A DNA stretch of 60,795 nt from IMG/VR virus record IMGVR_UViG_3300038318_000336, positions 1 to 60,795 of that record; one strand, 5' to 3'. Shown here one piece after another: positions 18,864-32,010 of the stretch. How positions within the stretch are numbered: the stretch's first letter is position 1; every line of letters starts with the position of its first letter. Position numbers and translations under genes: made by a program. This stretch comes from a virus (Duplodnaviria > Caudoviricetes). The notes below the pieces were generated by a model. It saw nothing but the letters and a program-made list of their open reading frames with translations, had not been told where the DNA came from and searched no databases.

Positions 18864-18898
18864 TCAAATCAAAAGAACTGTTTATGGGAGTGATTATT

Positions 18899-19255
18899 AT
18901 GGCACTGCCCAAATTTACATGGAAAGCTAACAGAGCTTATCAAGATGGGATTGTCTTTAATACTTTAATATCTAAATTTGAGAGTGGCAAAGAACAGAGG
19001 CGGTCCAAAGGGCTGCCTCGACGTACTTTTAGGCTGTATTTTGAAAAAGAAAATATATCTAAGACTGAAGTTACAGAAATTTGGGATTTCTTTGTAGCAA
19101 GAAAAGGCCAGTTTGAAACATTTGAATGGGATTATTTACGTGATGATGGGGTAACCGAAACAGTAAAAGTTAGGTTTAATACTGATGCCCTTGAAAGGGA
19201 CGTTTTCATGAATCTCATTTATAAATTTGGGTTGCCGTTAATCGAGGTGATATAA
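18899..19255 (+). CDS. distal tail protein (lambda gpM/DUF2460-like)
   Basis: FESGKEQRRS..PRR.F, FFVARKGQFETF. Confidence 0.8.
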   Translation: MALPKFTWKANRAYQDGIVFNTLISKFESGKEQRRSKGLPRRTFRLYFEKENISKTEVTEIWDFFVARKGQFETFEWDYLRDDGVTETVKVRFNTDALERDVFMNLIYKFGLPLIEVI

Positions 19256-20104
19256 ATGCCGCGAACCCTGACTCCAGAATTGTTTGCTGAAAAAGAAAAA
19301 GAATTTAATTGCCCGGTAGAAATTTACCAGGTATATTTGGATGAACAGACATTATATTTTGCAATGTGCCCAAAAAACATTGAATTCTTTGATGAGCAGG
19401 GCAACTCAGCCACTTATTATGCAGCGGATCTTAGTCGTGCTGCTGTAAAAACAAACATAGAAACCAAAGTAGACCAGACAGAAGTTCAAATTAGCAATGT
19501 TAATCGTGAGATGTCGGCTTATATTGCAAATACCGATTTTCAAGGTCGCCGGTTGGTAATCTGGAAAGTGTTTCTTGGTTGTCTTGATGATCCAAATAAC
19601 TATGTTGTAATATTTGACGGTATCATGGACGAACCACGAGTAGATCAATATACTGTGGCCGTTACTGTTGTTTCGAAACTAGATACCCTTGACCGCGAAC
19701 TTCCGGGGCGAACATATGAAGTGCAATGTTCTTGGCCAAGCGGATTCGGAGGCGAAGAGTGCGGGAAGGTAATAGCACCAAAAAACGGGACGGTAGACAG
19801 CGTTTCTGTTGACAGGATGACAATCTATGATGCGGTGCTTACCGAGGTGGCTGGTTATTGGAAATTCGGGATGATAACAATTGGTAAGGAAAGCAGGGTA
19901 GTAACAGAGTCCGGGACTGGGTGTGTTAGAGTGGAATATCCATTTTATATTGAGGTGCCGGCAGGGACTGAATATATCTTGGAAGCCGGTTGTGATAAAG
20001 GGTTTGATACTGCTCATGGTTGCCAGTACTGGAATAATACAAATTATTATGGCGGGTTCTTGTCTATCCCGCGGATTAGGGATGTGAGAGAAGTTGCCAG
20101 GTGA
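19256..20104 (+). CDS. tail tip hub protein (gpL/DUF2163-BR0599-like)
   Basis: PGRTYEVQC.W...C, GCDK...C..WNN..YYGGF Fe-S-type Cys pattern. Confidence 0.85.
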   Translation: MPRTLTPELFAEKEKEFNCPVEIYQVYLDEQTLYFAMCPKNIEFFDEQGNSATYYAADLSRAAVKTNIETKVDQTEVQISNVNREMSAYIANTDFQGRRLVIWKVFLGCLDDPNNYVVIFDGIMDEPRVDQYTVAVTVVSKLDTLDRELPGRTYEVQCSWPSGFGGEECGKVIAPKNGTVDSVSVDRMTIYDAVLTEVAGYWKFGMITIGKESRVVTESGTGCVRVEYPFYIEVPAGTEYILEAGCDKGFDTAHGCQYWNNTNYYGGFLSIPRIRDVREVAR

Positions 20105-20516
20105 GATTAATGCCAGAAGGTATCTGGGCCTTCCGTTTAGGCATAATGGCAGAGATTTAAATGGGGTTGATTGTCTAGGTTTAATGCTTTTGATTTTAAA
20201 GGATGCAGGAATAGAACTTCCTAATGATGATGGCCAACCAATTAATCCGAAATGGTATAATACCGAACCAGAAAGATTTATTAAGGGGCTTGAACAATAT
20301 GGCCAGCGAATTAATATTACAGAACTACAACCACTTGATGTGGTCGTTTTTTGTTTTAAAGAAATACCGAGACACGCAGGAGTAATGATAAGTCGTAGCC
20401 ATTTTATCCACATTCGCGAGAATGATTGTTCGTCGGTAGTCCGGCTAAAAAGGTATAGCCGGTTTTTTTATGCGGCATACAGAATGACAGAGATAAAAAC
20501 GACACAAGGCAGGTGA
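20094..20516 (+). CDS. NlpC/P60 tail-tip peptidase (gpK-like)
   Basis: YLGLPF..NGRD.NGVDCLGL, HAGV, FIH. Confidence 0.9.
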   Translation: MPGEINARRYLGLPFRHNGRDLNGVDCLGLMLLILKDAGIELPNDDGQPINPKWYNTEPERFIKGLEQYGQRINITELQPLDVVVFCFKEIPRHAGVMISRSHFIHIRENDCSSVVRLKRYSRFFYAAYRMTEIKTTQGR

Positions 20517-20522
20517 GAAACT

Positions 20523-23219
20523 TTGAGTAGTGTAGCACAAGCAGCCGGAACTATTTTCGGGGGCCTTATTGGGTTTATTGTTGGCGGCCCTGCTGGAGCT
20601 GTCAAGGGTGCAGCTCTTGGGTACAGTTTGTTTGCACCTCGTTCAGGGTCAAGCCCTACATACTCATTTGGTTCTACCTACAATACTCGTAGCCATGAAC
20701 TTGCTGTGCCTGTGATTTACGGGCGTAACCGTGTAGCAGGCAATACAATATTCGAAAAGATATCAGGCGATAAAGATGAAAAAATAGCGTTGCAAATAGG
20801 TGTCTCTGAAGGCCCTATTAAATCAATTAATGAGATAAAGTGTAATGATATTGGGCTTATTGAGTTAGGGCTAGAGGTTGGAGGAATTTCTCATAGCGTT
20901 AAATTAGGAGAGAGGACTCAAACAGCAGATCCTATCAATGATCAAGGGCAAACCTTTCCTTACTTAGCTTACATTTCTGCTCAATTAACAGCAAATGAAT
21001 TTCTTTCAGGCAGCCCTACCATTACCTCCATCGTCGAAGGCAGAATAATAAAAGTATGGAACGGTAGCTCTTGGACAGAATCTTACAATAACAATCCCGC
21101 TTGGTGTATTCTTGATTTTCTTACCAACAACCGATATGGATTAGGCATTGATGAGCAGTTCATTGACCTGGACAGTTTTATTAACACAGCGGAGCATTGC
21201 AACGGTCTTGTCCCTGATGGCAATGGTGGTCAAGAAAAAAGGTTCCAGCTTGATTATGTGTTAGATGCCAAAAAATCTAGTTTAGACTATATAAAAGAAA
21301 TGCTGGCCACTTTTGCCGGGTTTCTCATATATTCTCAAGGAGAGATTCGCCTTAATACAGACGGGCCGGGGGCACCGACACAATACTTTGATATGGATAA
21401 TATCATTGAGAATTCTTTTTCTTATTCCAAAGCAAGCCGGAAAGACATATACAACCGAGTAAAAGTGCAATATATTGATCCGGATGAACATTGGGAGAAA
21501 ATTTTTGCTCAGTACAGTTTAGATAGTGATATTCGTAAAAATAGGATTAACGAGATAGAGATCCCGCTCTTAGGTATAAGCCGATTTTCTCAAGCCGGCA
21601 GAATGGCTAGATTCTACCAGAAGAAGTCCTGGTTTTGTAATACATTTTGCCAGTTTATGGTAGGCATAAATGATTTAGAGTGTGAAGCTGGAGATATTAT
21701 TGCTGTTACCCATGAAGCGCCGGGTTGGGTGGAGAAGGAATTCCGAGTATTAGAGATCCATGAATTAGAGAACGACGAAATGCGCCTGATTTGTCAGGAA
21801 TATAACATTGCAGTATATTCCGATGACGGAGTGGTACGGCAAATTAAAAAAGATACGGAATTACCAAATCCGTTTGCGTTCCCGGCCAGTGTTATGAATT
21901 TGTCTTTGATTGAACAGGCTAAAATTCTTGGCGACGGAACATGGGTGCCGGGAATTAAAGTAGCTTGGGACAAGCCGAACAATATTTTCTGGAGAGCGGG
22001 TCTTATCTATGTATCTAGCGATGAAGGCGCGACTTGGCATTTTATACAGCGGGTTGAAGGAACAGAATTTCTTATTGATAATTTGGCCCCGGGGACATAC
22101 AAGGTGCGGGTTGTCTCCGAAAACAACCACGGTATAAAACAGGATTTTAGCTTGGCGGCGACCGGACAGATCACTGTGGCTGGGAAGGATGTTGAACCCT
22201 CTGATGTCACCTGGGCAGATTGTTCTTTTATTGATAGGGTTATTTTGCGCTGGAATTCGGTACCGGATACAGATTTGGACGAGTACGAAGTTAGGTTTAA
22301 TGCCAATTTTGGCAGCGATGATGAGTTTTTGGTTTACCGGGGCAAAGGGTTGAGCTTTACGTTAGACAGGCCAGCGCAACGGCAATATACGTTTTATATG
22401 AAGGCAAAAGACCGATCGGGGAACTACAGTAAAAACGCGACGCCGAAAATTGTAGAGAATGCCGTTCCGTCTACTCCGCCCCAACCAATTATCACTGAGT
22501 TTTTCAGCTCACTTTGGATAGAAATACGGCCCGTTTCCGATAACGACATCCTCGGTTACAACCTATACATGACACCTTGCGACGCTCAAGGCAATCCGAA
22601 CGGCGACACGCAGGTAACAACGTACCCGACACCTCAGCGAATCACCTACCAGGCCGAGGTCAAAAGCTCATTCCTGGTTCAAGTGGCGGCATTCGACATA
22701 TTAGGCGAAGGGGAAAAGTGCGCTCCTGTCTTGGCCCGGACGCGGACCATTGATGAAGTGGCGGCTTTTGCGCAAAACGTAACATTCCCGAAGATTGTGG
22801 ATGAGTTGCCGGAATTACCGAGTGATGAATACCCGGCAGATAGCTTGGTGGTACTGTCTACAGACCATCAGCTCTACAGATCGACCGGCACAGAATGGGA
22901 CAACAGCGTCTCGACCGAACAATTAGTAGGCAAAATCACCGCTGGCATGATCGCCGCTGGGGCTATTGGTGCAGCAGAAATTGCGGCGCAGTCTTTGGTA
23001 GCTGATCATTTCGCGGCCGGGAGCATTGAGGCTTATGTGGCGGCGGTAAAAGAGGCTTTTATCGATAGCGCGAAAATTATTAGCATTGAGGCAGACAAAA
23101 TCAAAGTCGGCGGCAGTTCCGCCCCCATCCCCCTAGCCATCAGCCCAACCGACACACTATTTCGCTTTGACGGCTCCCTGCTCAGCACTCAAGGTTTAAA
23201 GCCTCTAGGAATGGAGTGA
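20523..23219 (+). CDS. central tail fibre/host-specificity protein (gpJ-like, FN3 domains)
   Basis: VPVIYGRNRVAGN, NNPAWCILDFLTNNRYGLG, FN3-like repeats, AGAIGAAEIAA coil. Confidence 0.9.
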   Translation: MSSVAQAAGTIFGGLIGFIVGGPAGAVKGAALGYSLFAPRSGSSPTYSFGSTYNTRSHELAVPVIYGRNRVAGNTIFEKISGDKDEKIALQIGVSEGPIKSINEIKCNDIGLIELGLEVGGISHSVKLGERTQTADPINDQGQTFPYLAYISAQLTANEFLSGSPTITSIVEGRIIKVWNGSSWTESYNNNPAWCILDFLTNNRYGLGIDEQFIDLDSFINTAEHCNGLVPDGNGGQEKRFQLDYVLDAKKSSLDYIKEMLATFAGFLIYSQGEIRLNTDGPGAPTQYFDMDNIIENSFSYSKASRKDIYNRVKVQYIDPDEHWEKIFAQYSLDSDIRKNRINEIEIPLLGISRFSQAGRMARFYQKKSWFCNTFCQFMVGINDLECEAGDIIAVTHEAPGWVEKEFRVLEIHELENDEMRLICQEYNIAVYSDDGVVRQIKKDTELPNPFAFPASVMNLSLIEQAKILGDGTWVPGIKVAWDKPNNIFWRAGLIYVSSDEGATWHFIQRVEGTEFLIDNLAPGTYKVRVVSENNHGIKQDFSLAATGQITVAGKDVEPSDVTWADCSFIDRVILRWNSVPDTDLDEYEVRFNANFGSDDEFLVYRGKGLSFTLDRPAQRQYTFYMKAKDRSGNYSKNATPKIVENAVPSTPPQPIITEFFSSLWIEIRPVSDNDILGYNLYMTPCDAQGNPNGDTQVTTYPTPQRITYQAEVKSSFLVQVAAFDILGEGEKCAPVLARTRTIDEVAAFAQNVTFPKIVDELPELPSDEYPADSLVVLSTDHQLYRSTGTEWDNSVSTEQLVGKITAGMIAAGAIGAAEIAAQSLVADHFAAGSIEAYVAAVKEAFIDSAKIISIEADKIKVGGSSAPIPLAISPTDTLFRFDGSLLSTQGLKPLGME

Positions 23220-23223
23220 TAAC

Positions 23224-24774
23224 ATGGCATTAGTACGAACAGATTACGGATTAATTTACAATGATGATGGCTCCCTTTGTGCTACCCTGCTTCCTGAAGG
23301 TGGGGTGGCGGTGGAAGAGGGGACGGAGAATCTAATTCCAGTAGCTAATCAGCTATTTAAATATGGAGTGGGCTGGTCTACATATATGGATTCTGCAGCA
23401 ATTGTTACACAAGATATTGTTGTGCCAGAATGGAGAACTAATAAAGCTACAAGGTTACAACTTAGTGGTGGAACTAACCGGATTAAATATTATGGAGTAG
23501 TTTCTACAGACACAGCCTACTTAGATAATAAAACTTTCGCGGTCCAAGTTTTAGTTAAAAACATAGGTCAAAAAACAGTAGAAGTTGGTGCTAATAGAGG
23601 GTTTATCACAGACAATGTTTTGCCTGGAGAAGTTAAAAAAGTAAAATTAATAGTACCCGCAATTGTCAGTGGAAGCCATTTACAGATCCAATTTAGAACA
23701 TTAGAGATAGAGGATTCATTAGACCTTATTGTATACCAACCAATGGCAGAGGAGGGGTCTTATTGCACCTCCTTCACCGAAGGCACTCGTCTCCCTGGGG
23801 CGTTACCTTATTCGACATCTGTCATAAGTGGCATGAATGAAATTGCAGTATTAATAAAGGCAAAAAGGCCAGTGCACTCACAAGCCATTAGCTATCTTTT
23901 TAGTGCTTCTACCGATCCGTTGCAAAGTCCATACGCAAATACATTTGTCCTGCGTACAACAGAACCCACTAATGGGTTATACTTTTGGACAGTAGATCCT
24001 TTGGGGGAAAATAGCGATCAGCTTGGTGTTAGAGATATATGGCTAGATGATGAAGACCACGATATTGTTGTTTATATGAATCACAATCCAGCTCCTGGTA
24101 GACATAAAAAAGAACTTTATTTTGATGGGGAATTAATAGGATATGCCGATCCTGCCTCGCTTCCGGATTTATCTGCGATAGACCATTTCAACATTGGAAC
24201 GTGGGGGAGTAAAACAATGTGGTGGGGCAGTCCCATTAAAATGTTTTGTATCAAACCCACTTGTACACTAGAACAGGTCAAAGCCTGGCACTCCCTGGAC
24301 GCCCCGTTTTTTGACCCGAGGGAGCAGATTGATGCTGGGGCGAGGCCTGTTAGCGTCCAAGGAACAGGCGGTTCTCTCACTATCAACAACCAAGGTGAAA
24401 AGTGGGTACGCGCAAGTGATGGTAAGGCTATGTACTTTTTCGATGTAAATAACGGCGATGCAGAGTATGCGGGGAGACTAGTGGCCGGAGATGGTAGGAT
24501 CGTGTCCGATGAAGATAGTTTAAGAACCTATGATAAGCCATATACGGACCCTACTGCTATAAAACAAGTAGAGATTGGGACAGATGGAGCATTAACATTC
24601 GGTGCTGGCGCTGGTCGAGCAGATGCGCAAGGCCTACTATTATATGACATTTCCGATCCTAACAACCCCAAAATTATGGTTAGACTTGTTGGCGAAACTG
24701 GTTCCGCAGATTTTGAGGGTATGGTAAAAGCTAAAACTCTAGTAATTCCGGTTGGCACGAATAGGTGGGGATAA
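23224..24774 (+). CDS. tail fibre/receptor-binding protein with CBM- and LamG-like domains
   Basis: VAVEEGTENL, QPMAEEGSYCTSF, LYFDGELIG..FNIG motifs. Confidence 0.75.
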   Translation: MALVRTDYGLIYNDDGSLCATLLPEGGVAVEEGTENLIPVANQLFKYGVGWSTYMDSAAIVTQDIVVPEWRTNKATRLQLSGGTNRIKYYGVVSTDTAYLDNKTFAVQVLVKNIGQKTVEVGANRGFITDNVLPGEVKKVKLIVPAIVSGSHLQIQFRTLEIEDSLDLIVYQPMAEEGSYCTSFTEGTRLPGALPYSTSVISGMNEIAVLIKAKRPVHSQAISYLFSASTDPLQSPYANTFVLRTTEPTNGLYFWTVDPLGENSDQLGVRDIWLDDEDHDIVVYMNHNPAPGRHKKELYFDGELIGYADPASLPDLSAIDHFNIGTWGSKTMWWGSPIKMFCIKPTCTLEQVKAWHSLDAPFFDPREQIDAGARPVSVQGTGGSLTINNQGEKWVRASDGKAMYFFDVNNGDAEYAGRLVAGDGRIVSDEDSLRTYDKPYTDPTAIKQVEIGTDGALTFGAGAGRADAQGLLLYDISDPNNPKIMVRLVGETGSADFEGMVKAKTLVIPVGTNRWG

Positions 24775-24775
24775 C

Positions 24776-25681
24776 ATGAGTGCATATTTCGAAGTAAAAG
24801 GAACTGATATTAAGTGGGAGTACAACGGAAAGTTATATAGTATTACAGGCAACGATGTGGGGGTAGTGGCTGGAAGCCCTGGGAGCATATGGGTAGAGGG
24901 AAATTATCTTGCATATATTGATGAGCTTAATCACAAAAGATTATATTATATTGATCCTACAGGGGTTTTCCCAACCGCTGCTATTCCGGGAGCAATTTTT
25001 GTTAACCAAAACGACAGCATGCTAAGGATAGTTAATTCCTCAAAGGAAGTTAGAATTACCAATCACTCTGATCACAGTGATACATCGGCAATAAATAAAA
25101 CAAAGTATAATGATAGCGATGCTCATAGTGACACTATTATAGTGGATATTCCTCATGCTGACGAAACATATTATAGTGATACTATACCTATTCATGATGA
25201 TTATTCGCCACCATATAGCAATCATTCAGATTATAGTGATACACCTTATTCTGATACACATTCAGATACACCTTACAAAGATTTACCAACATATACAGAT
25301 CACAGCAATTATACCGACCAGCATTATGATGATGTTTATACCGATTATTCTCAACATAACGATGTGGTTCATCATTTCGATGAAACATATACAGACCATA
25401 GTAATTATACTGATCAACATTATGATGATACATATACAGATCATCACAACACTCCTCATAGCGACACCCACAGTGATGCCGCTCATTCTGACAGTGGGGG
25501 GTACACAGATTATACAGATGGGATATATGCAAATTGGACTGATTCCTTGCCCGGCCCAGACCCCCATGCGGACAGAATTTATTCAGATCATTCCGATTGG
25601 GTAAATGAGTCTCATAGTGATTGGAGTGATTATTATAAAAGTGTACAACATTTAGATACTCCTAGAATTCAACAATTATAA
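24776..25681 (+). CDS. tail-module protein with ~40 [HYW]-x-[DN] tripeptide repeats; candidate radical SAM substrate
   Basis: ATG 1 nt after upstream stop, AGGTGGGG RBS; ~95-aa beta-rich N-domain then HSD/YSD/YTD/HAD/WSD array. Confidence 0.85.
   Translation: MSAYFEVKGTDIKWEYNGKLYSITGNDVGVVAGSPGSIWVEGNYLAYIDELNHKRLYYIDPTGVFPTAAIPGAIFVNQNDSMLRIVNSSKEVRITNHSDHSDTSAINKTKYNDSDAHSDTIIVDIPHADETYYSDTIPIHDDYSPPYSNHSDYSDTPYSDTHSDTPYKDLPTYTDHSNYTDQHYDDVYTDYSQHNDVVHHFDETYTDHSNYTDQHYDDTYTDHHNTPHSDTHSDAAHSDSGGYTDYTDGIYANWTDSLPGPDPHADRIYSDHSDWVNESHSDWSDYYKSVQHLDTPRIQQL
25289..25441 (+). repeat. 57-bp internal duplication (TYTDHSNYTDQHYDDxYTD x2)
   Basis: copies at 25289-25345 and 25385-25441; 7 synonymous codon differences and 1 non-synonymous. 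Confidence 0.9.
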
Positions 25682-25695
25682 GGAGGAAACGTGCA

Positions 25696-26997
25696 TTGAG
25701 TGTTTTGGTAAAACCTGAATTAAAATGTAATATGCAGTGTAAATATTGTTACGAACAAGATACGAGACACTGGCAAAGCGATATTGGCGTGGACGTAGAT
25801 AAGGCTATTAAACAAGCGGAAACAATTTATGAGTGCGAAGGAAGAGGAAACTCTATTTGTGCACATGGAGGCGAACCCTTGCTTTTACCTAAGACAGAAT
25901 TAGAAAAAATATTGCAACTAGCACATGAAAAAACAGGATACAGTTCAATACAAACAAACGGGACATTAATTGATGAGGATCATATTAAGATGTTTAAACA
26001 ATACAAGACTGGGGTAGGAATTAGTATTGACGGTAGATGGCCGCTAAATGAATACCGCTGGGCTGGTAGTGAGAAAAAAACAAAAGAAATGACAGAAAAA
26101 ACAATTGCAAATATATATAGACTTGTTAAGGAAGGGGTTGCCCCTGGATTAATTATAGTAATATCAAAAGCAAACGGAACAAAAGAACGATTACCGGTTC
26201 TTAAAGGCTTCTTACAGGAAATGTGTAATGTTGGGGTCGCTTCAATTCGCCTAAATTTAGCTATTTCAGACAAGTGTGGTCTTGCGCCAGAAGAAGCAAA
26301 AGAGACATACTTGGAGCTTTGCAAGTATACGCTAGAAGATTCGAAACGAGCATATCTTCCGTTTCGTGATATGGTAGATAATTTGCTTGGTTTAGGTATG
26401 GGGACGTGTGTTTTTACCAAATGTGATTTTTATCATACGGAAGCAGCGAGAGTTGTCCTTGGGGATGGATCGAGAACGTGTTGCCTGAAAACCGCAGGCA
26501 GCGATCGGCCTTTTATATGGGATTCTCAGTGTTCGGATATAAGATATCAAATTTTAGGCTCTATCCCAAGAGATGAAGGTGGATGTAGTGATTGCAGGTA
26601 TTGGCGGGTATGTTATGGATTTTGCCCATCGGAGACACCAGGAGGAGATTGGCGAAACCGGGCAATATATTGCGAAGCGTATTATGCTTGTTTCAAATAT
26701 ATAGAGAACCGATTAAAAGGGATATTGCCAAATGTGGTTTTGGTTCCGGGGGTTGAAGTTGAAGATGAACAAAAAGACTATCATGAACGCAAAGGGAATT
26801 GCTGGCACATTGAGCCTTTTAAATCGATGAGCCTATCTGCTGAGACAAGGAATCCGTCTACGTGGAAAGAAACGGCCAGACAAATGGTGTACCAAAATAA
26901 CAGCAAAGGCCTTCAATTCGAAAAATACAAACAGGCTATACCAGGTAAACCTGGATACTACCACGCAGACCATGCAGACCAAGGAGGGTGTAAATAA
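25696..26997 (+). CDS. radical SAM/SPASM domain protein (peptide-maturase type)
   Basis: CNMQCKYC, HGGEPLL, IQTNGTLI, GISIDG; SPASM Cys set CVFTKC...CC...CSDCRYWRVCYGFC...YC; AGGAGG RBS with TTG start. Confidence 0.95.
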   Translation: MSVLVKPELKCNMQCKYCYEQDTRHWQSDIGVDVDKAIKQAETIYECEGRGNSICAHGGEPLLLPKTELEKILQLAHEKTGYSSIQTNGTLIDEDHIKMFKQYKTGVGISIDGRWPLNEYRWAGSEKKTKEMTEKTIANIYRLVKEGVAPGLIIVISKANGTKERLPVLKGFLQEMCNVGVASIRLNLAISDKCGLAPEEAKETYLELCKYTLEDSKRAYLPFRDMVDNLLGLGMGTCVFTKCDFYHTEAARVVLGDGSRTCCLKTAGSDRPFIWDSQCSDIRYQILGSIPRDEGGCSDCRYWRVCYGFCPSETPGGDWRNRAIYCEAYYACFKYIENRLKGILPNVVLVPGVEVEDEQKDYHERKGNCWHIEPFKSMSLSAETRNPSTWKETARQMVYQNNSKGLQFEKYKQAIPGKPGYYHADHADQGGCK

Positions 26998-26998
26998 A

Positions 26999-27826
26999 AT
27001 GGAACTTACTCAGATGGCGGATTTGTTTCCTTTTACACGTGTTATTTATAATTCTCCAAAAGCACAGGAGATATGGGAACCAAAAATAAAAAGAGCTTCA
27101 TCCATTCACAACGAAGCAGAATTTGAAATGGTTAGGATGGGATATCGACGAGCTGCTACTCTGCATATTTCTCCATATGATTACGAGAAAAGTATAGAAA
27201 AAATCATCAGAAACGGATTGGCATGGCTGCCGATTCAACGAACAAAGAATTATAATGGTTTTTCTCATAAACATTTTCCGACAGACCCGGAAGATCCGGA
27301 TTCTTCTGTTTACGGGGTATTGGCTAAAACCATAGAAGATGCAGAAATGTTTCGAAATGCTTCACGTGGACAAGCAACAGATCATAATATAATAGGAGAG
27401 TTGCTTGGATTCCCTCAATGTTGTAGAGATTTCTTTGACACCGTTTGGATGGCCGGATATATTGATCCAATTTGGCAAGCAGCAGAAAAGACAGAAGGCG
27501 CTGAAAAATTATCTGATACCCATATAATATTAAAGAAAATATATCCTGAAGCAATGCAAGCTTTTAGATATATAGGGCCACGAATAACTTCCCATTTGTC
27601 TTGCTCTTTTACATGCGAAGAAAGCAAAAAGGAAGGCCAAAAGTGGATAGAGTGTATGGAAAAGTTTGATGCTGAAGGGTTGCAAGCTATGATGAATATA
27701 TTGACGTTGCCATTTAAATGGTCTGTAAAATGGGGAGTTGCCATTATCTCTACCCCGCATTTCCGGATAATAACAAATTCCATGGCAGCCAAAAAAGAGT
27801 ACATCATTGAGTATATACCACAATAA
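26999..27826 (+). CDS. DUF483-like Cys-motif protein, partner of the radical SAM gene
   Basis: IGELLGFPQCCRDFF and SHLSCSFTCEES motifs; ATG 1 nt after rSAM stop. Confidence 0.6.
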   Translation: MELTQMADLFPFTRVIYNSPKAQEIWEPKIKRASSIHNEAEFEMVRMGYRRAATLHISPYDYEKSIEKIIRNGLAWLPIQRTKNYNGFSHKHFPTDPEDPDSSVYGVLAKTIEDAEMFRNASRGQATDHNIIGELLGFPQCCRDFFDTVWMAGYIDPIWQAAEKTEGAEKLSDTHIILKKIYPEAMQAFRYIGPRITSHLSCSFTCEESKKEGQKWIECMEKFDAEGLQAMMNILTLPFKWSVKWGVAIISTPHFRIITNSMAAKKEYIIEYIPQ

Positions 27827-27873
27827 GTAAAAAGAGTATATAAAATAAAGTAATGTTGTTTTGTTAGTTAAAA

Positions 27874-27882
27874 TGGTATAAT
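27874..27882 (+). promoter_or_regulatory. extended -10 promoter of lipoprotein moron
   Basis: TGGTATAAT just upstream of AAAGGAGG RBS. Confidence 0.6.
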
Positions 27883-27905
27883 ATGTATAGAAAGGAGGAT
27901 GAAAA

Positions 27906-28724
27906 ATGAAATTAAAGAAAATATGGATTTTATTGTTGTGTTTAGTTGTTCTATTTAATTTTACGGCATGTAAAAGCAAGAAAAAAACCGGAGAAGGGAC
28001 ACTTCGTGTTGTCATCAATTGGGAAGAGTTTGCAACAATGAAAAGCGGACAAAAAACACTCACTAATTTAGTAGGATTTAGAGCTGGCGAGATTCCAGAA
28101 GACACAAGTATTGTAACTCATACTGGCGTTCGAGTGGTATATCCTGATGAAAACGCAGCTTATTCCCAAAGTGTAACGAGAGAGATTGCAGAAACACAAG
28201 GGATAATAACTTTGCAAATTCCTGCTACAACCAATGCGAAAATGTATGTTGTGGCAATTCATGGTTCGGAAACGGCTGAGAACAGAAGAGCTTTACAGTT
28301 AGGATATGTTGATGCTCTTACAATTCTAGAAGATAATATAACTACAATTACTATGTTTGATATTGATTGGACTACCGCAACATGGTACCCAGGAGAAGAT
28401 TATACAGAATATCAAAATGGATTAATTGCATCTAAAGAGATTAAAAGATTTATTTTCCCGATTTATGTTAGCGATCCGTTCCAAGTCGGGGAAGATGTTA
28501 CTCACGAACAAGCGATTATAAAAGTACTAGGAAGAAATAGTTGCCAGGAAAACATTAACGGCTGGAGACGATATGACATATCCCATGAAAATACTGCTAT
28601 TGGGGTAGAATATACTGGAACATATACTTTTCAGCCTTACCTTGGTTCGTTGTTTTTTAATTTACCTGAAGGTTTATATTTAATAGAACCTATTGTAGAT
28701 AGATACACGGTAACTTGGCAGTAA
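27906..28724 (+). CDS. lipoprotein moron
   Basis: MKLKK + hydrophobic stretch + lipobox-like FTAC; own promoter and terminator. Confidence 0.8.
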   Translation: MKLKKIWILLLCLVVLFNFTACKSKKKTGEGTLRVVINWEEFATMKSGQKTLTNLVGFRAGEIPEDTSIVTHTGVRVVYPDENAAYSQSVTREIAETQGIITLQIPATTNAKMYVVAIHGSETAENRRALQLGYVDALTILEDNITTITMFDIDWTTATWYPGEDYTEYQNGLIASKEIKRFIFPIYVSDPFQVGEDVTHEQAIIKVLGRNSCQENINGWRRYDISHENTAIGVEYTGTYTFQPYLGSLFFNLPEGLYLIEPIVDRYTVTWQ

Positions 28725-28749
28725 ATAGTAGAATACAGAACTCCCAACC

Positions 28750-28771
28750 AACCGCCTTCGGGCGGTTTTTT
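28750..28771 (+). terminator. intrinsic terminator
   Basis: AACCGCC-TTCG-GGCGGTT + T-run. Confidence 0.85.
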
Positions 28772-28800
28772 AATGCCCAAAAGAAAGGCGGTTGATAAAA

Positions 28801-29160
28801 ATGCCAGAAGACAAGATCCAAGAGAAAAGGTTCGATGATTTTAAGAATGAAATGTTCCGGGCCCTAGCCGACCTAAAAGAAACATTGGGCAGCCGGATAA
28901 GCGAACTGTCCGGCGAGGTCAAGGCGTATATGCAAATGTCCCAGCGGCAAGATCGGGAATTGGTGGAGTTGCGTGCTAAGAACGAAAACAACGAAGATGA
29001 CATCAGGGAAATTAAGCCGAAGCTGGAACAGGTCAAAGAACAAACTACAGAGCTCAAAACAGAGCTGGAAACCACGCAACGCAACTTTAAAACCGCCTTG
29101 ACGATTGTGAGTTTGGGATTATCACTTTTAACTCTGGTTTTGAGATTTTGGAAGGGGTGA
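28801..29160 (+). CDS. coiled-coil protein with C-terminal TM (XhlA/holin-accessory-like)
   Basis: coiled coil then single TM; first gene of lysis block. Confidence 0.65.
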   Translation: MPEDKIQEKRFDDFKNEMFRALADLKETLGSRISELSGEVKAYMQMSQRQDRELVELRAKNENNEDDIREIKPKLEQVKEQTTELKTELETTQRNFKTALTIVSLGLSLLTLVLRFWKG

Positions 29161-29164
29161 GATA

Positions 29165-29722
29165 ATGGCAGACTTTGAAAAAGCGGTACAGAAAACCTTG
29201 TCCCTGGAAGGCGGTTACGTCAACGACCCAGCCGACCCTGGCGGTGCCACGAAGTACGGGATCGCCGAAGCCACCGCCAGGGCTCATGGTTATATCGGTG
29301 ACATGCGGTTGCTAACGGTAGAAACGGCAAAAGCCATCTACAAAACAAGTTATTGGGACGTTGCTCGGCTTGACGAGGTAGAGAGCCAGCTCATAGCCGA
29401 AAACATCTTTGATTGTAATGTGAATTGCGGGGCGAAAATAGGTGGCAGATTATTACAGGAGTCTCTGAACCTCATTAACATCGACCCCGCCGGCCGACAA
29501 ATGTGGCCAGTCATTACGGTAGACGGCATTGTGGGAAACGGAACGCTTCAAACATTAAACCAAGCTCTCCGCTCAAGACGAGATATGGAGAGCTTAATTA
29601 TTGTGATGTTTAACTGTTTGCGGGCGAATCGGTATGTAAGCATTATAAAAAACAGGCCGGCTAGTAAGAAATTTATGATTGGTTGGCTAAAACATCGGGT
29701 TTGGTTGGAGGTGAGAACATGA
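29165..29722 (+). CDS. endolysin, glycoside hydrolase family 108
   Basis: EGGYVNDPADPGGATKYGI, VDGIVGNGTL, KFMIGWLKHRV. Confidence 0.92.
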   Translation: MADFEKAVQKTLSLEGGYVNDPADPGGATKYGIAEATARAHGYIGDMRLLTVETAKAIYKTSYWDVARLDEVESQLIAENIFDCNVNCGAKIGGRLLQESLNLINIDPAGRQMWPVITVDGIVGNGTLQTLNQALRSRRDMESLIIVMFNCLRANRYVSIIKNRPASKKFMIGWLKHRVWLEVRT

Positions 29723-29994
29723 GAACCGGAACCAAAATCTCTATCCTCCTGGTTATCTGGACGATGTTATTAGTCACATTCCTTGTAGTTGGTCTTGTCT
29801 GTCTCTCTATTGACCACCCAGACCTAAAAGAACTTTGGACGCAGGTAGCGCCAATCATCACTGCTCTTTTAGGGACTGGGGGATTGGGGTTTGGAATAAA
29901 CGAAGTAAGAAAAGCTGTAGAAAATAAAAGTTTTAACCTAAAAAATAAGCAAAAGGAAAATTTAGAAAGTGAAAATGAAACAGAAAAGCTATAA
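29719..29994 (+). CDS. holin candidate (2 TM)
   Basis: two hydrophobic helices, charged C-tail, overlaps endolysin stop. Confidence 0.65.
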   Translation: MRTGTKISILLVIWTMLLVTFLVVGLVCLSIDHPDLKELWTQVAPIITALLGTGGLGFGINEVRKAVENKSFNLKNKQKENLESENETEKL

Positions 29995-30556
29995 AATCAT
30001 TGTCGATTCAGGGGAAAGAGATATACCACAAGTATTGACCCCAATTTGCTCTGAAGTAGGATCCTTGGTTATTTCACATGAGGATGAAATTGCATATGAT
30101 ATAGCATGGCGAACAGAACAGAAACTAACCCAAAAGGGTTGTTTGTCTTTTCTTTCGCGAAACAGAGGAAAGCTTAGCACTATACAAAACCGTTGTGATT
30201 TTGCAAACAAGATGAAAGCCGATTTATTTGTTTCTATTTATATTAACAACACAAATGACCAGACAACAAGCGGGCTTCAGGTTTATTCTTGCCAAGGCTC
30301 AAGGCCAGGGGCAATGCTCCGGAATGCAATTTATGGCGAGGTCAGGCGATTGTTCCCGGACTGGGCAGACCAGGGGACTAAAGAAGCCGGGTTTTATGTT
30401 TTGCGGGGAACCGATATGCCGGCGGTTACCGTCGAGTGCGGGCGCCTATCTAATCCAGAAGAAAAGAAACTCTTAACCTTGCCAGAGATAAGAGAACGGT
30501 TTGCCGAGGGGATTGCAGCGGGGGTAGAATCGTATTTGGTGGCAATACAGGATTAA
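29969..30556 (+). CDS. Amidase_3-fold protein with Zn-binding His residues lost
   Basis: ADLFVSIYIN, FYVLRGTDMPAVTVECG; IIVDSGE where DxGH is expected. Confidence 0.75.
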   Translation: MKMKQKSYKIIVDSGERDIPQVLTPICSEVGSLVISHEDEIAYDIAWRTEQKLTQKGCLSFLSRNRGKLSTIQNRCDFANKMKADLFVSIYINNTNDQTTSGLQVYSCQGSRPGAMLRNAIYGEVRRLFPDWADQGTKEAGFYVLRGTDMPAVTVECGRLSNPEEKKLLTLPEIRERFAEGIAAGVESYLVAIQD

Positions 30557-30595
30557 AAATGTTTTCCATAAAGAAAAGGGGGAATTAGAATAAAA

Positions 30596-31360
30596 ATGAA
30601 ACCTAGAACCAATTTTACAGACCCGTTTAAAACCACCAAAACCATCTTCTGGGTGGTTGTTTTTATTTTAGCGGTGATTGGGATAGTGGTTACATGGAAA
30701 AGCTTTGGGCGGTGGATAACCTTATTTGGTGGCGGATTGTTGGGACTGTTTGGGGGCGCTGATTGGTTGGAACAAAAAGAGCAGGAACGAATCAAACAAC
30801 GTAACTTGGAAATTCGCGAAGATATTGAGAATCAAAACGAAATCCGAACTAAGCTTGACAGTGAGACAGAGGATTGGCGGGAGAAAGTTGATAAATTACG
30901 TCGAAACGGACTAGTGATTATAATACCATTATGCCTTGGTTTGTTCTTGACAATGCTTTTCTCTGCCGCGGTCTATGCTAAAACGGATAATGATATTCCA
31001 GAAACTTATGATGAATTGTTAGAAGAATATATTCTTGCATTGGAATACATCGATGAGGCGGGTCAGAAGATAGCAGGTTATCAGGCGTTAGACGACAGGC
31101 GGATTAAAACTATAGAAAAGCAAGCGGACAGAATAAACGAGTTAGAGCAAGAGGTTGACAGACTATCTCGCCCTACTTGGGGTGTGGTTAGCGGTCTTGA
31201 GGTTATTGATATGGCCGCCAGATGGAAGCTAGGTATAAGCAAACAATATAATGGCCACAAAAGCTTATTTGTTTATTCATGGTCTGCCGGGTTAGCTGGT
31301 GGTGGCAATAATGGATTAGGAATATTTAGCGAGGTAGAATTAAGATGGAAACCTCCTTGA
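30596..31360 (+). CDS. membrane protein, spanin-like candidate
   Basis: TM segments, two coiled coils, beta-rich C-terminus; last gene of lysis block. Confidence 0.55.
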   Translation: MKPRTNFTDPFKTTKTIFWVVVFILAVIGIVVTWKSFGRWITLFGGGLLGLFGGADWLEQKEQERIKQRNLEIREDIENQNEIRTKLDSETEDWREKVDKLRRNGLVIIIPLCLGLFLTMLFSAAVYAKTDNDIPETYDELLEEYILALEYIDEAGQKIAGYQALDDRRIKTIEKQADRINELEQEVDRLSRPTWGVVSGLEVIDMAARWKLGISKQYNGHKSLFVYSWSAGLAGGGNNGLGIFSEVELRWKPP

Positions 31361-31380
31361 GGGAGGAATGGCAAGGAATA

Positions 31381-31526
31381 TTGACGATAATAGATATTGA
31401 TAGTTAGAATTATTGAAATGAGGTAGAAAAATGACCGTGTTCCACCGTCATTTTTCTTCAGATTGAAATGGCGGCCCCGGCCACCTTCTCTTACTGCGTC
31501 GAGAAAGTGGCCGGGGCCCTAGTTTT
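31381..31526 (+). ncRNA. candidate small structured RNA with own promoter
   Basis: TTGACG-18-TAGAAT, hairpins 31425-31457 and 31473-31518, then T-run. Confidence 0.4.
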
Positions 31527-31659
31527 TAGAAGACAATTATAGCAAAGAAAAAGCCTGGAGTTAAACGTTCCTCCAGGCCATTAAGAGGCTGCGAGCAATA
31601 CTCACAACCCTCATCCCGAATTATTCTACCACAGATGGGCAGGTTTATTCAACCAGATT

Positions 31660-32010
31660 TTACTCAACCAGTTTATTTAAGCTGATAGCAAGCTTAGCAA
31701 GAATTAGCTGGTTGAGGCTGGTGCCCTCCTGGTCAGCTTCTTTAATCAGCGCCCGATGAAGAGACCGAGGAAGCCTGAGCGTAAACTTCCCATCTGACTC
31801 AGTAGTCACTGGTTGCATTTTTTCAAGTTCGTAGGCCATGTCTTGTATTTCTTCGAATTCTGGCGACTCTAAATACTCATTTCTTTCTTTCCGGTTTTTC
31901 GGCATAAACTTAGACCCCTGGTTAAAATACCGGTTGTGGAAGCAGACCCAGTCCATCCCTTCTTCAAAACTTTTTTTTGCATCCTCTAATATCCATCCGA
32001 ATTTGTCCAT
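31660..32010 (-). CDS. hicB: HicB-like antitoxin (C-terminal RHH)
   Basis: GKFTLRLPRSLHRALIKEADQEGTSLNQLI. Confidence 0.75.
   Translation of the reverse strand: MDKFGWILEDAKKSFEEGMDWVCFHNRYFNQGSKFMPKNRKERNEYLESPEFEEIQDMAYELEKMQPVTTESDGKFTLRLPRSLHRALIKEADQEGTSLNQLILAKLAISLNKLVE

Follow-up and report, generated by a model that had tools for sequence, protein, structure and literature searches.

A candidate radical SAM protein-maturation module with a probable aromatic-x-Asp repeat substrate in a phage tail block

Introduction

To our knowledge, all known peptide cross-linking by radical S-adenosylmethionine (SAM) enzymes serves small secreted natural products. DynA, whose substrate is a short antibiotic precursor found in an exporter context, joins Trp to the C-beta of Asn and a His N to the C-beta of Tyr, in each case across three residues. 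Triceptide synthases link the ring of an aromatic residue (Omega1) to the C-beta of the residue two positions downstream (X3), and His motifs are among those linked in this way (PMC11499958). Here we describe a cassette of three genes in a 60,795-nt IMG/VR record of a member of the Caudoviricetes (IMGVR_UViG_3300038318_000336), which was analysed over its whole length and is called the window below. In this cassette an enzyme of the radical SAM superfamily (rSAM) is encoded between a protein crowded with aromatic-x-Asp triplets and a DUF483-like protein, directly behind a tail fibre gene. An earlier note, made from the letters of this DNA alone, had proposed that the enzyme cross-links the repeat protein, and that the product is a part of the virion.

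The trio has already been noticed in Thermus phages, where a different guess was made at its function. An 'rSAM module' comprising an rSAM protein, a DUF483 protein and a protein of unknown nature was reported in phages Cumys and phiMa and in prophages (bioRxiv 10.1101/2024.08.14.607894; PMC11437467). The authors noted DUF483 fusions from InterPro and suggested an unknown DNA modification, and they report no virion proteomics for these phages (bioRxiv 10.1101/2024.08.14.607894).

Results

A three-gene cassette coupled to a fibre gene

The genes of the cassette are as follows.

24776-25681, + strand: gene 1, a 301-aa Omega-x-Asp repeat protein (Omega being His, Tyr or Trp) and the probable substrate, from motif counts, homologues and synteny
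25696-26997, + strand: gene 2, a radical SAM/SPASM enzyme of 433 aa in a clade of its own, from Pfam, its Cys set and the tree
26999-27826, + strand: gene 3, a DUF483-like partner of 275 aa with a conserved CC...H-x2-C-x3-C, from a weak Pfam match and its relatives

The open reading frame (ORF) of the fibre ends at 24774 and, after a gap of 1 nt, gene 1 begins with the ATG at 24776, which we prefer to a TTG at 24752 because homologues start at the same Met. Gene 1 ends at 25681 and is followed after 14 nt by the TTG start of gene 2 at 25696, which is preceded by AGGAGG; gene 2 ends at 26997, again 1 nt before the ATG of gene 3 at 26999. These coordinates agree exactly with the gaps of 1, 14 and 1 nt behind the last tail-fibre gene given in the earlier note. 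Given these gaps, and given that the + strand holds no terminator-like site (at least five G-C pairs) between those at 20441-20462 and 28750-28767, it is plausible that the cassette is co-expressed with the fibre genes.

The same trio recurs in other genomes

Conservation of the cassette was assessed from two directions. Of the 31 loci fetched with gene 3 (24 from metagenomes and seven from IMG/VR), 27 have an rSAM homologue immediately 5' of it, and the other four have less than 400 nt of upstream sequence. The start of the enzyme is contained in 21 of the loci fetched in this way. Two of these break off within 200 nt of it; in the other 19, each reaching at least 250 nt further 5', an Omega-x-D-rich ORF with 10-104 [HYW]-x-D triplets stands directly 5' of the enzyme. 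The enzyme alignment fetched 80 IMG/VR loci, 45 at the level of the family (E <= 1e-41) and 35 with more distant rSAMs. The family-level loci have a motif-dense ORF in 43 cases and gene 3 in 40, and the two that lack the dense ORF have under 1.4 kb of sequence ahead of the enzyme; their sister loci show the order repeat, gene 3, spacer gene, enzyme. The 35 loci with distant rSAMs have gene 3 in none and a dense ORF in seven, three of which resemble a further variant of the system, and in a control set of 56 genome loci with rSAMs of other families a dense ORF turned up once and a weak match to gene 3 once. The linkage is kept down to 26-30% enzyme identity. A pattern search of IMG/VR with the gene 1 alignment found no relative, and a scan of IMG/VR with the single rSAM protein returned one distant locus only. 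The trio follows tail genes in other phages as well, where the earlier note had proposed to look for it, among them Cumys and loci L007, L027 and L028 (our own numbering, used hereafter). Taken together, these comparisons support the view that the three genes form one conserved module.

The gene 2 family is also found in cellular genomes, with 24 loci in GTDB at 32-37% identity. Its hosts are Cyanobacteriota, Bacillota, Acidobacteriota, Planctomycetota, Myxococcota, Chloroflexota and a nanohaloarchaeon, together with a haloarchaeal plasmid. Gene 3 is adjacent in 19 of these loci and a dense HxD ORF is present in 16. When the enzyme tree described below is rooted on anSME, 19 bacterial enzymes (among L034-L057) form one clade (support of 99 in the Shimodaira-Hasegawa-like approximate likelihood ratio test, SH-aLRT) nested within viral rows, and two archaeal rows branch off close to the base; a viral origin of the system, followed by its adoption in cells for secreted proteins, is therefore possible. 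Two of the cellular loci encode HxD peptides (L043, 8757-9179; L056, 8250-8519) with a twin-arginine-like signal (RRDLL.. and RKALL.., respectively) ahead of the array, an arrangement that would fit modification in the cytoplasm before export.

A variant of the substrate, encoded immediately 5' of the rSAM gene, was seen in L019, L023, L031 and L032. It contains Cys and many F/W/H-x-N triplets and has no hairpin N-domain, it is preceded by small coiled-coil-like ORFs and a large DDITLKWN-type repeat protein, and the enzymes of these loci make up a separate sub-clade.

Gene 1 is constrained in register as well as in composition

Three regions can be distinguished in gene 1.

24776-25069, + strand: N-terminal beta-hairpin domain, residues 1-98, all-beta in AlphaFold2 at a predicted local distance difference test score (pLDDT) of ~90
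25064-25657, + strand: repeat array, residues 97-294, predicted to be disordered, with 34 [HYW]-x-D and six [HYW]-x-N
25649-25678, + strand: C-terminal end motif H-x-D-x-P plus 4-8 residues, present in 17 of 17 rows of the gene 1 alignment and in Cumys_13

Our recount of non-overlapping motifs gives 36 [HYW]-x-D in the whole protein, and in residues 96-301 it returns exactly the 34 [HYW]-x-D and six [HYW]-x-N that the earlier note had estimated for the last ~200 aa. In 5000 shuffles of residues 96-301, the mean number of [HYW]-x-D was 9.0 (sd 2.3) and the maximum 19. When overlapping motifs are counted over the same residues, Asp stands at +2 of 36 of the 49 His, Tyr and Trp residues (Asp or Asn at 42 of 49), and 36 of the 40 Asp residues have His, Tyr or Trp at -2. 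Gene 1 has a [HYW]-x-D density of 0.116 per residue; among the window's other open frames of at least 80 codons, the highest value is 0.025. The repeat is kept in the protein and is no tandem array of the DNA. Tandem Repeats Finder reports a single array of 39 bp, and two 19-codon units differ at nine codons, seven of them synonymously.

A large protein database yielded no more than five homologues comparable in length, at 37-69% identity; in their alignment with gene 1, His, Tyr, Trp or Asp account for 29 of the 34 invariant columns that lie beyond residue 96. We also pooled 27 repeat proteins from phages, bacteria and archaea, whose motif z-scores range from 5.5 to 17.4. Across this set the residue at +2 of His, Tyr or Trp is Asp in 1067 and Asn in 173 of 1617 instances. 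Position 1 of the motif is His (759), Tyr (203) or Trp (105), and position 2 varies freely, with Ser or Thr in 428 of the 1067 motifs. Judged from these counts, it is the +2 register, and not mere composition, that is maintained.

An AlphaFold2 model made with the 17-row alignment bears out the ~95-aa beta-rich N-domain proposed in the earlier note. In the same model residues 99-293 have a pLDDT of ~36, and residues 297-299 form a short strand at ~60. The N-domain is kept in phage and archaeal relatives. A search of BFVD with the model gave one significant match, a 342-aa viral protein. The N-domain gave only leads in the ESM Atlas (scores of at most 0.90, template modelling score below 0.5), these being viral hypothetical proteins, some with PTL_trimer, on which we do not rely. 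No signal peptide is visible in the sequence of gene 1.

Gene 2 belongs to a family of its own among SPASM-domain enzymes

The features of gene 2 are listed here.

25726-25749, + strand: CxxxCxxC cluster motif (C11, C15, C18), read in the sequence and invariant in the 37-member alignment
26407-26673, + strand: SPASM-type Cys set, C238 to C326, including CxxCx5Cx3C, with eight Cys invariant in 37 members
26962-26979, + strand: HAD-HAD in the tail behind the SPASM region, kept in the four closest homologues and doubled in a fifth

Gene 2 is a member of the radical SAM superfamily by its match to Pfam Radical_SAM (PF04055; E 6.6e-15, 56.1 bits against a cut-off of 29.5). The CxxxCxxC, GGE and SPASM Cys set named in the earlier note can all be read in the sequence, GGE at residues 58-60 and the eight Cys of the SPASM set at 238, 243, 263, 297, 300, 306, 310 and 326. 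The CxxCx5Cx3C motif occurs in 117 of the 120 homologues listed. The Pfam SPASM model did not match gene 2 at E <= 0.01, but a profile of the family aligned over its full length, SPASM domain included, with anSME in the PDB (4k36; profile positions 2-348, E 1.5e-28), and over its N-terminal half with the triceptide synthase ChlB (9gm3; E 6e-19). These features place gene 2 among the SPASM-domain rSAM enzymes.

The NCBIfam matches of gene 2 include DynA (E 1.8e-28), YhhB (2e-24), AmcB (1e-23), GrrM (1.4e-15) and XyeB (4e-14), and DynA, anSME, AmcB and YhhB are the best matches common to all 37 family members scanned. The scores lie far below the curated cut-offs (DynA 99.9 of 450 bits, YhhB 86.1 of 445, AmcB 83.9 of 425), the matches to YhhB and AmcB cover the N-terminal 160-190 residues only, and that to DynA covers residues 4-236 only. 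The score of gene 2 as an anSME is likewise low (80.7 bits against the TIGR03942 cut-off of 349.45). We built a tree of 105 rows (110 less five duplicates), each cut to its first 420 residues; a row was kept only if at least 280 of its residues were aligned and its query start lay no later than residue 15. The 85 rows with repeat or gene 3 neighbours form one clade (SH-aLRT 96), and the 12 rows that pass the anSME cut-off form another (SH-aLRT 99) that does not include gene 2; eight unclassified rSAMs lie outside on long branches. Because of this clade, and because the curated scores are so far below their cut-offs, we regard gene 2 and its relatives as a family of their own in the anSME/cyclophane-synthase neighbourhood and not as members of a described one. 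The tree, in which the reference rows labelled by curated cut-offs are anSMEs only, sets the enzymes apart from these rows and does not decide which of the characterised families named in the earlier note is their sister. A reading of the cassette as a defence system was dropped, PADLOC giving generic viperin-type rSAM matches for gene 2 as its only result in the cassette.

The enzymes themselves carry the motif. In addition to the HAD-HAD of gene 2, homologues at 38-42% identity have tails that end in H-G-D strings, and at least two motifs are found in the post-SPASM tail of 41 of the 117 family enzymes with the SPASM motif. The density of the motif in family enzymes is 0.020 per residue in the tail against 0.0029 in the core. 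The enzymes may act on this tail motif themselves, or it may serve as a pseudo-substrate or for docking; such tails suggest a tie between enzyme and repeat that is independent of gene order.

Gene 3 is a putative metal-site protein tied to the enzyme by fusions

Gene 3 matches Pfam DUF483 (PF04467) at E 0.0089 with 16.5 bits, under the gathering threshold of 25. PF04467 is carried by three of 33 gene 3 homologues and by 16-40% of the members of the nearest ESM Atlas clusters, and fused relatives reach 27.7 bits, so that the label 'DUF483-like' in the earlier note seems a fair one. This large family counts 2375 cluster representatives at E <= 0.001, of which 771 reach E <= 1e-30. The gene 3 model has a pLDDT of 92.7 and no fold match in the PDB at E <= 0.001 (the best being 2guk at E 0.22), and the gene 3 profile found nothing under E 0.26 among PDB sequences. 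Its conserved core, C141-C142...H199-x2-C202-x3-C206, with each residue present in 81-95% of 151 sequences, looks like a Zn or Fe-S site. A catalytic His cluster (H56, H90, H92, H129) was considered and rejected, its columns not being conserved across the same 151 sequences.

A survey of ten long relatives showed an rSAM domain fused in front of the gene 3 domain in three (P0184, P0267, P0246) and a class-I methyltransferase behind it in five, P0246 having both; one carries a glycosyltransferase domain and one a LAGLIDADG insertion. The fusions tie gene 3 functionally to the enzyme, which it may serve in substrate delivery, as a redox partner or as a second-step enzyme. The LAGLIDADG domain, which lies inside P0162, looks intein-like or homing-endonuclease-like. 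In L025 the match to gene 3 is split by ~1 kb (241-483 and 1552-2076).

The cassette lies in the distal tail block

The fibre features upstream of the cassette are these.

20523-23219, + strand: J-like central tail fibre/host-specificity protein at the start of the distal tail block (Pfam Phage-tail_3, E 7.6e-15; phrog_31 'central tail fiber J', E 3.8e-90)
23224-24774, + strand: distal fibre protein of 516 aa, directly 5' of gene 1 (phrog_38142, E 3.3e-16; weak NCBIfam GTA_spike_fiber match)
24607-24771, + strand: C-terminal module of this fibre, roughly its last 55 aa, with the same ending in other fibres 5' of gene-1-type proteins

The tail block on the + strand runs from an ORF of tape-measure size through four ORFs (18884-20516), the J-like fibre and the distal fibre to the cassette genes. 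Tail or fibre genes precede the cassette in the window, in L007, L027 and L028 and in phage Cumys, and lysis genes follow it; tblastn matches to the distal fibre are the fibre ORFs of L012 and L027.

The fibre end module has the consensus ...FKG-x-VEA-x2-hhh-P-V-G-T/S-D-K/R-W and was found in the window, in L005, L007, L012, L027, L028, L029, L030 and L033, in the archaeal L036 and L039, and in Cumys_14 (L114). It thus spans bacterial phages, two archaeal elements and a Thermus phage, and always lies just before a gene-1-type protein; it is missing 5' of the gene-1-type proteins of L020 and L038. The gene 1 N-domain and the fibre end module occur together in 12 of 14 cases. Cellular substrates that accompany the enzyme pair lack the hairpin N-domain of gene 1, from which we infer that this domain is not needed for recognition by the enzyme and is free for attachment. 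In L140 the array lies within a fibre itself: a 1186-aa J-like frame (phrog_5616, 6e-57; phrog_31, 4e-47) has 26 motifs in residues 700-900, ends in the fibre end module and is followed by a gene-1-type ORF. L159 encodes a protein with a 'virion structural protein' match and a C-terminal array of 35 motifs. A complex prediction for the C-terminal 81 residues of the fibre with the gene 1 N-domain scored 0.11 (mark 0.32) and is not used as evidence. Taken together, position and fusions suggest that the repeat protein is probably virion-associated. With regard to the earlier description of gene 1 as a structural fibre, its repeat is predicted to be disordered and it has no family match of its own; what stands is its position after the fibre gene and the fusions in L140 and L159.

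The cassette is followed by a lipoprotein gene, two endolysins (GH108 and amidase_3) and membrane proteins. As the earlier note had stated, there is no protease or exporter nearby, none having been found among the eight neighbouring proteins scanned. An extended -10-like TGGTATAAT lies in the 79-nt spacer ahead of the lipoprotein-like gene (27906-28724, +), which has a signal peptide ending in Cys and is followed by a terminator-like hairpin (28750-28767), the strongest in the region. In L003 and L004 homologues (54-56% identity) come after gene 3, and L027 has one on the opposite strand. The window's gene matches no family in Pfam, NCBIfam, PHROGs or PADLOC and may be a moron or a superinfection-exclusion gene. 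The lysis block has two unlike endolysins, at 29165-29722 and 29969-30556 (+), the GH108 enzyme carrying PG_binding_3, with small membrane-protein ORFs between and around them.

Discussion

Gene linkage, motif constraint, enzyme class and gene fusions are all established here by comparison of sequences. Based upon synteny, fusions and the motif-bearing tails of the enzymes, the gene 1 repeat protein is very probably the substrate of the enzyme. The account that we think explains the whole best, and in which we place moderate confidence, is that of a protein-maturation module in the distal tail block which forms cyclophanes and delivers its product to the tip of a fibre. The module would form part of the distal tail block in a siphovirus-like phage, and its substrate would be gene 1, with a folded beta-hairpin N-domain and a disordered tail of ~200 aa bearing ~40 H/Y/W-x-Asp/Asn triplets. 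Gene 2, together with the metal-binding protein of gene 3, would modify the triplets one after another. A 5'-deoxyadenosyl radical would take a hydrogen from the C-beta of the position-3 Asp or Asn, and this C-beta would then be coupled to the aromatic ring at position 1, as in triceptide synthases, to give a string of three-residue cyclophanes; gene 3 would bind metal and assist the enzyme. A floppy acidic tail would in this way become a stiff, protease-resistant and possibly metal-binding appendage, which the N-domain would dock on the C-terminal module of the upstream fibre and so place at the fibre tip of the virion. The cyclophane chemistry, which is argued from analogy with the triceptide enzymes, is quite possible but falls short of probable. 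Docking through the N-domain and a location at the fibre tip are the most likely arrangement to judge from the conserved pairing of the two modules.

Several observations weigh against this proposal. The enzyme falls under every curated cyclophane-synthase cut-off (at best 99.9 against 450 bits) and outside the curated XyeB, GrrM/OscB, YhhB, FxsB and AmcB families, so that the triceptide chemistry proposed in the earlier note finds no support in family membership. The only full-length match in the PDB, anSME, is an oxidase and not a cross-linker. The triceptide motifs given in the parts of PMC11499958 that we consulted (HAA, HNR, HTK, YDR) have no Asp at position 3, and the frequent fusion of gene 3 to methyltransferases suggests that its family may perform other or additional chemistry. 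Some of these observations speak instead for an enzyme that acts on the same substrate by a chemistry other than the joining of aromatic rings to C-beta, such as a dynobactin-type link from His N to C-beta, epimerisation, oxidation or hydroxylation of the Asp C-beta (compare anSME on Ser/Cys), decarboxylation, or a two-step reaction with gene 3. That DynA is the best NCBIfam match, that the family clade lies apart from every labelled row of the tree and that gene 3 has conserved metal ligands also point in this direction. The tolerance of the repeat, with His, Tyr or Trp (and Phe in relatives) at position 1, a free position 2 and Asp or Asn at position 3, nevertheless fits the logic of triceptides, and oxidation of position 2 in the manner of anSME is improbable given that Ser and Thr occupy it in a minority of the motifs. 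We regard a different chemistry as unlikely. The association with the enzyme could in principle mean nothing at all, the His/Asp-rich tail being an unmodified disordered segment that binds metal or acts in assembly: such tails do bind metals, the model does show disorder and genes that follow fibre genes often encode assembly chaperones. We give this possibility almost no weight, since the linkage survives to such low enzyme identity and in fusions and the +2 register, and not mere composition, is strictly kept.

A second group of objections concerns the virion. Gene 1 has no match in Pfam, NCBIfam or PHROGs and its model has no fold match in the PDB at E <= 0.001, so that a structural role is argued from position. 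Phages commonly carry cargo genes between their tail and lysis genes, and in L016 the cassette comes after a DNA helicase with no tail gene adjacent. In cells the arrays are found on proteins of secreted type, with Tat-like signals (L043, L056) or beta/gamma-crystallin and matrixin domains, and the picture of a device peculiar to phages does not survive the presence of the module beside such proteins in bacteria and archaea. A dense HxD ORF was missing, at the threshold used, from eight of the 24 cellular loci; the earlier note had held that enzymes occurring without an aromatic-x-Asp neighbour would count against it, and its expectation stood in the loci fetched with gene 3 and with the enzyme (19 of 19 and 43 of 45) and gave way in part in the cellular ones. 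On several of these grounds the cassette might be a moron inserted at a permissive site, its product a modified metal-binding or antibacterial protein that never joins the virion and is released by lysis or from a lysogen. Against this, the gap to the fibre gene is 1 nt, with no need for a promoter or terminator between, no signal peptide was recognised in gene 1, the N-domain keeps company with the conserved C-terminus of a fibre, and in L140 the array is part of the J-like fibre polypeptide; in the window it is the lipoprotein gene, and not the cassette, that is framed by a promoter-like site and a strong terminator of its own. We consider cargo improbable. The suggestion of DNA or nucleotide modification by the rSAM and DUF483 proteins, made in the Thermus-phage work, would make the repeat protein an unrelated neighbour; its authors note that some cyanobacterial homologues lie near deazapurine DNA-modification genes (bioRxiv 10.1101/2024.08.14.607894). 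The nearest families of the enzyme are all SPASM protein or peptide maturases, however, the repeat ORF accompanies the enzyme in 19 of 19 and 43 of 45 loci and the enzymes themselves end in the motif, which leaves DNA modification a very small chance of being correct. Overall, the interpretation offered in the earlier note holds for the module and its target, as the synteny, fusions and enzyme tails attest; the enzyme lies outside the curated triceptide families, and the module is not confined to phages.

The cassette appears to tie a class of cross-linking enzymes to a full-size protein of a viral structural module, with up to 130 triplets per protein in relatives. We consider it plausible that SPASM rSAM maturation here reaches, with the help of a new partner family, a protein of a phage structural module, and that cyclophane chemistry and a place in the virion go with it. 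If this is true, carbon-carbon cross-links installed by an enzyme would be known for the first time in a virion protein, and the large DUF483-like family would gain its first function. The cassette would also reveal a new substrate logic for SPASM enzymes, namely an Asp at position 3 and a substrate the size of a protein, with no leader and no protease, and a new way for phages to stiffen or protect a receptor-binding appendage. Our more general proposal, which is a tentative one, is that phages rebuild their own particle in this manner, the rSAM enzyme and its partner installing tens of C-C (or C-N) rings on a fibre-tip tail to make a new cross-linked biomaterial for contact with the host. 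The earlier note knew of no described rSAM-cyclised virion protein, and we likewise found no description of an rSAM-modified virion protein in the literature searched, in which subscription papers and supplements were only partly covered and a mention elsewhere is possible.

Comparison with known systems

Several described systems resemble parts of the cassette. Like the triceptide systems (YhhB with HNR, HaaB with HAA, HtkB with HTK, ChlB with YDR, XyeB, GrrM/OscB), it has a SPASM rSAM enzyme adjoining a substrate with repeated Omega1-X2-X3, in which position 1 may be any of His, Tyr and Trp. The residue in contact with position 3 is D214 in HtkB and H204 in HaaB (PMC11499958). Here, however, the substrate has 200-1200 aa, 20-130 motifs and a folded domain, where triceptides are made from short peptides of leader and core; Asp or Asn fills position 3 in nearly every case; and the module has an obligatory DUF483-like partner, no protease or exporter and a place in a phage tail block. 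The resemblance to DynA is that it is the best NCBIfam match of gene 2 and is matched by all 37 members, and the difference lies in the low score and partial coverage of that match. The anSME enzymes, the only full-length structural relatives by sequence, share the SPASM domain, with two auxiliary clusters, and act on the C-beta of a protein side chain, whereas near gene 2 there is neither a sulfatase nor a Cys/Ser-x-Pro/Ala-x-Arg target, and gene 2 scores well under their cut-off. The His-Xaa-Ser system (HxsA, HxsB/HxsC) likewise sets a His-x-small-residue repeat protein beside rSAM/SPASM enzymes, but it has two rSAMs where we find one (no second rSAM is present at 20000-32000 in the window), an HxsD that is absent here, a different third residue and no DUF483 partner; HxsB matches gene 2 at E 2.7e-12 with 46 bits against a cut-off of 370, and matches five of 37 members, which places the cassette outside that system.

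On the structural side, Tfa-type chaperones and T4 gp38-type tip adhesins are encoded directly after the distal fibre gene. Gene 1 shares this position and has an N-terminal part able to dock on a fibre end, but no similarity of sequence or fold was found in Pfam, NCBIfam, PHROGs, the PDB or BFVD, and we know of no protein of this type that needs an rSAM enzyme.

In another Thermus phage, phiLo (L115, 178 kb), IS605-type transposase fragments adjoin an rSAM gene and a longer DUF483-like 'methyltransferase'. Of the six neighbouring ORFs that we translated none is rich in the motif, and the substrate may be encoded elsewhere in that genome.

A further relative is the module of Cumys and phiMa. 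These are myovirus-like phages of an aerobic thermophile, unlike the phage of the window, and their enzyme falls in another sub-clade; the repeat, to the extent that we could consult the report, is not described by its authors (bioRxiv 10.1101/2024.08.14.607894). The trio is nonetheless the same, in the same order and co-orientation after tail genes, so that the cassette of the window counts as an 'rSAM module' of this type. The order in Cumys is baseplate genes, tail collar fibre, Cumys_14, Cumys_13, rSAM (Cumys_12) and DUF483 (Cumys_11). Cumys_13 has 60 [HYW]-x-D and the same N-terminal hairpin repeats as gene 1, and gene 3 is 37% identical between that module and the window. The presence of this trio in cultured phages of Thermus thermophilus HB8 makes the question a testable one.

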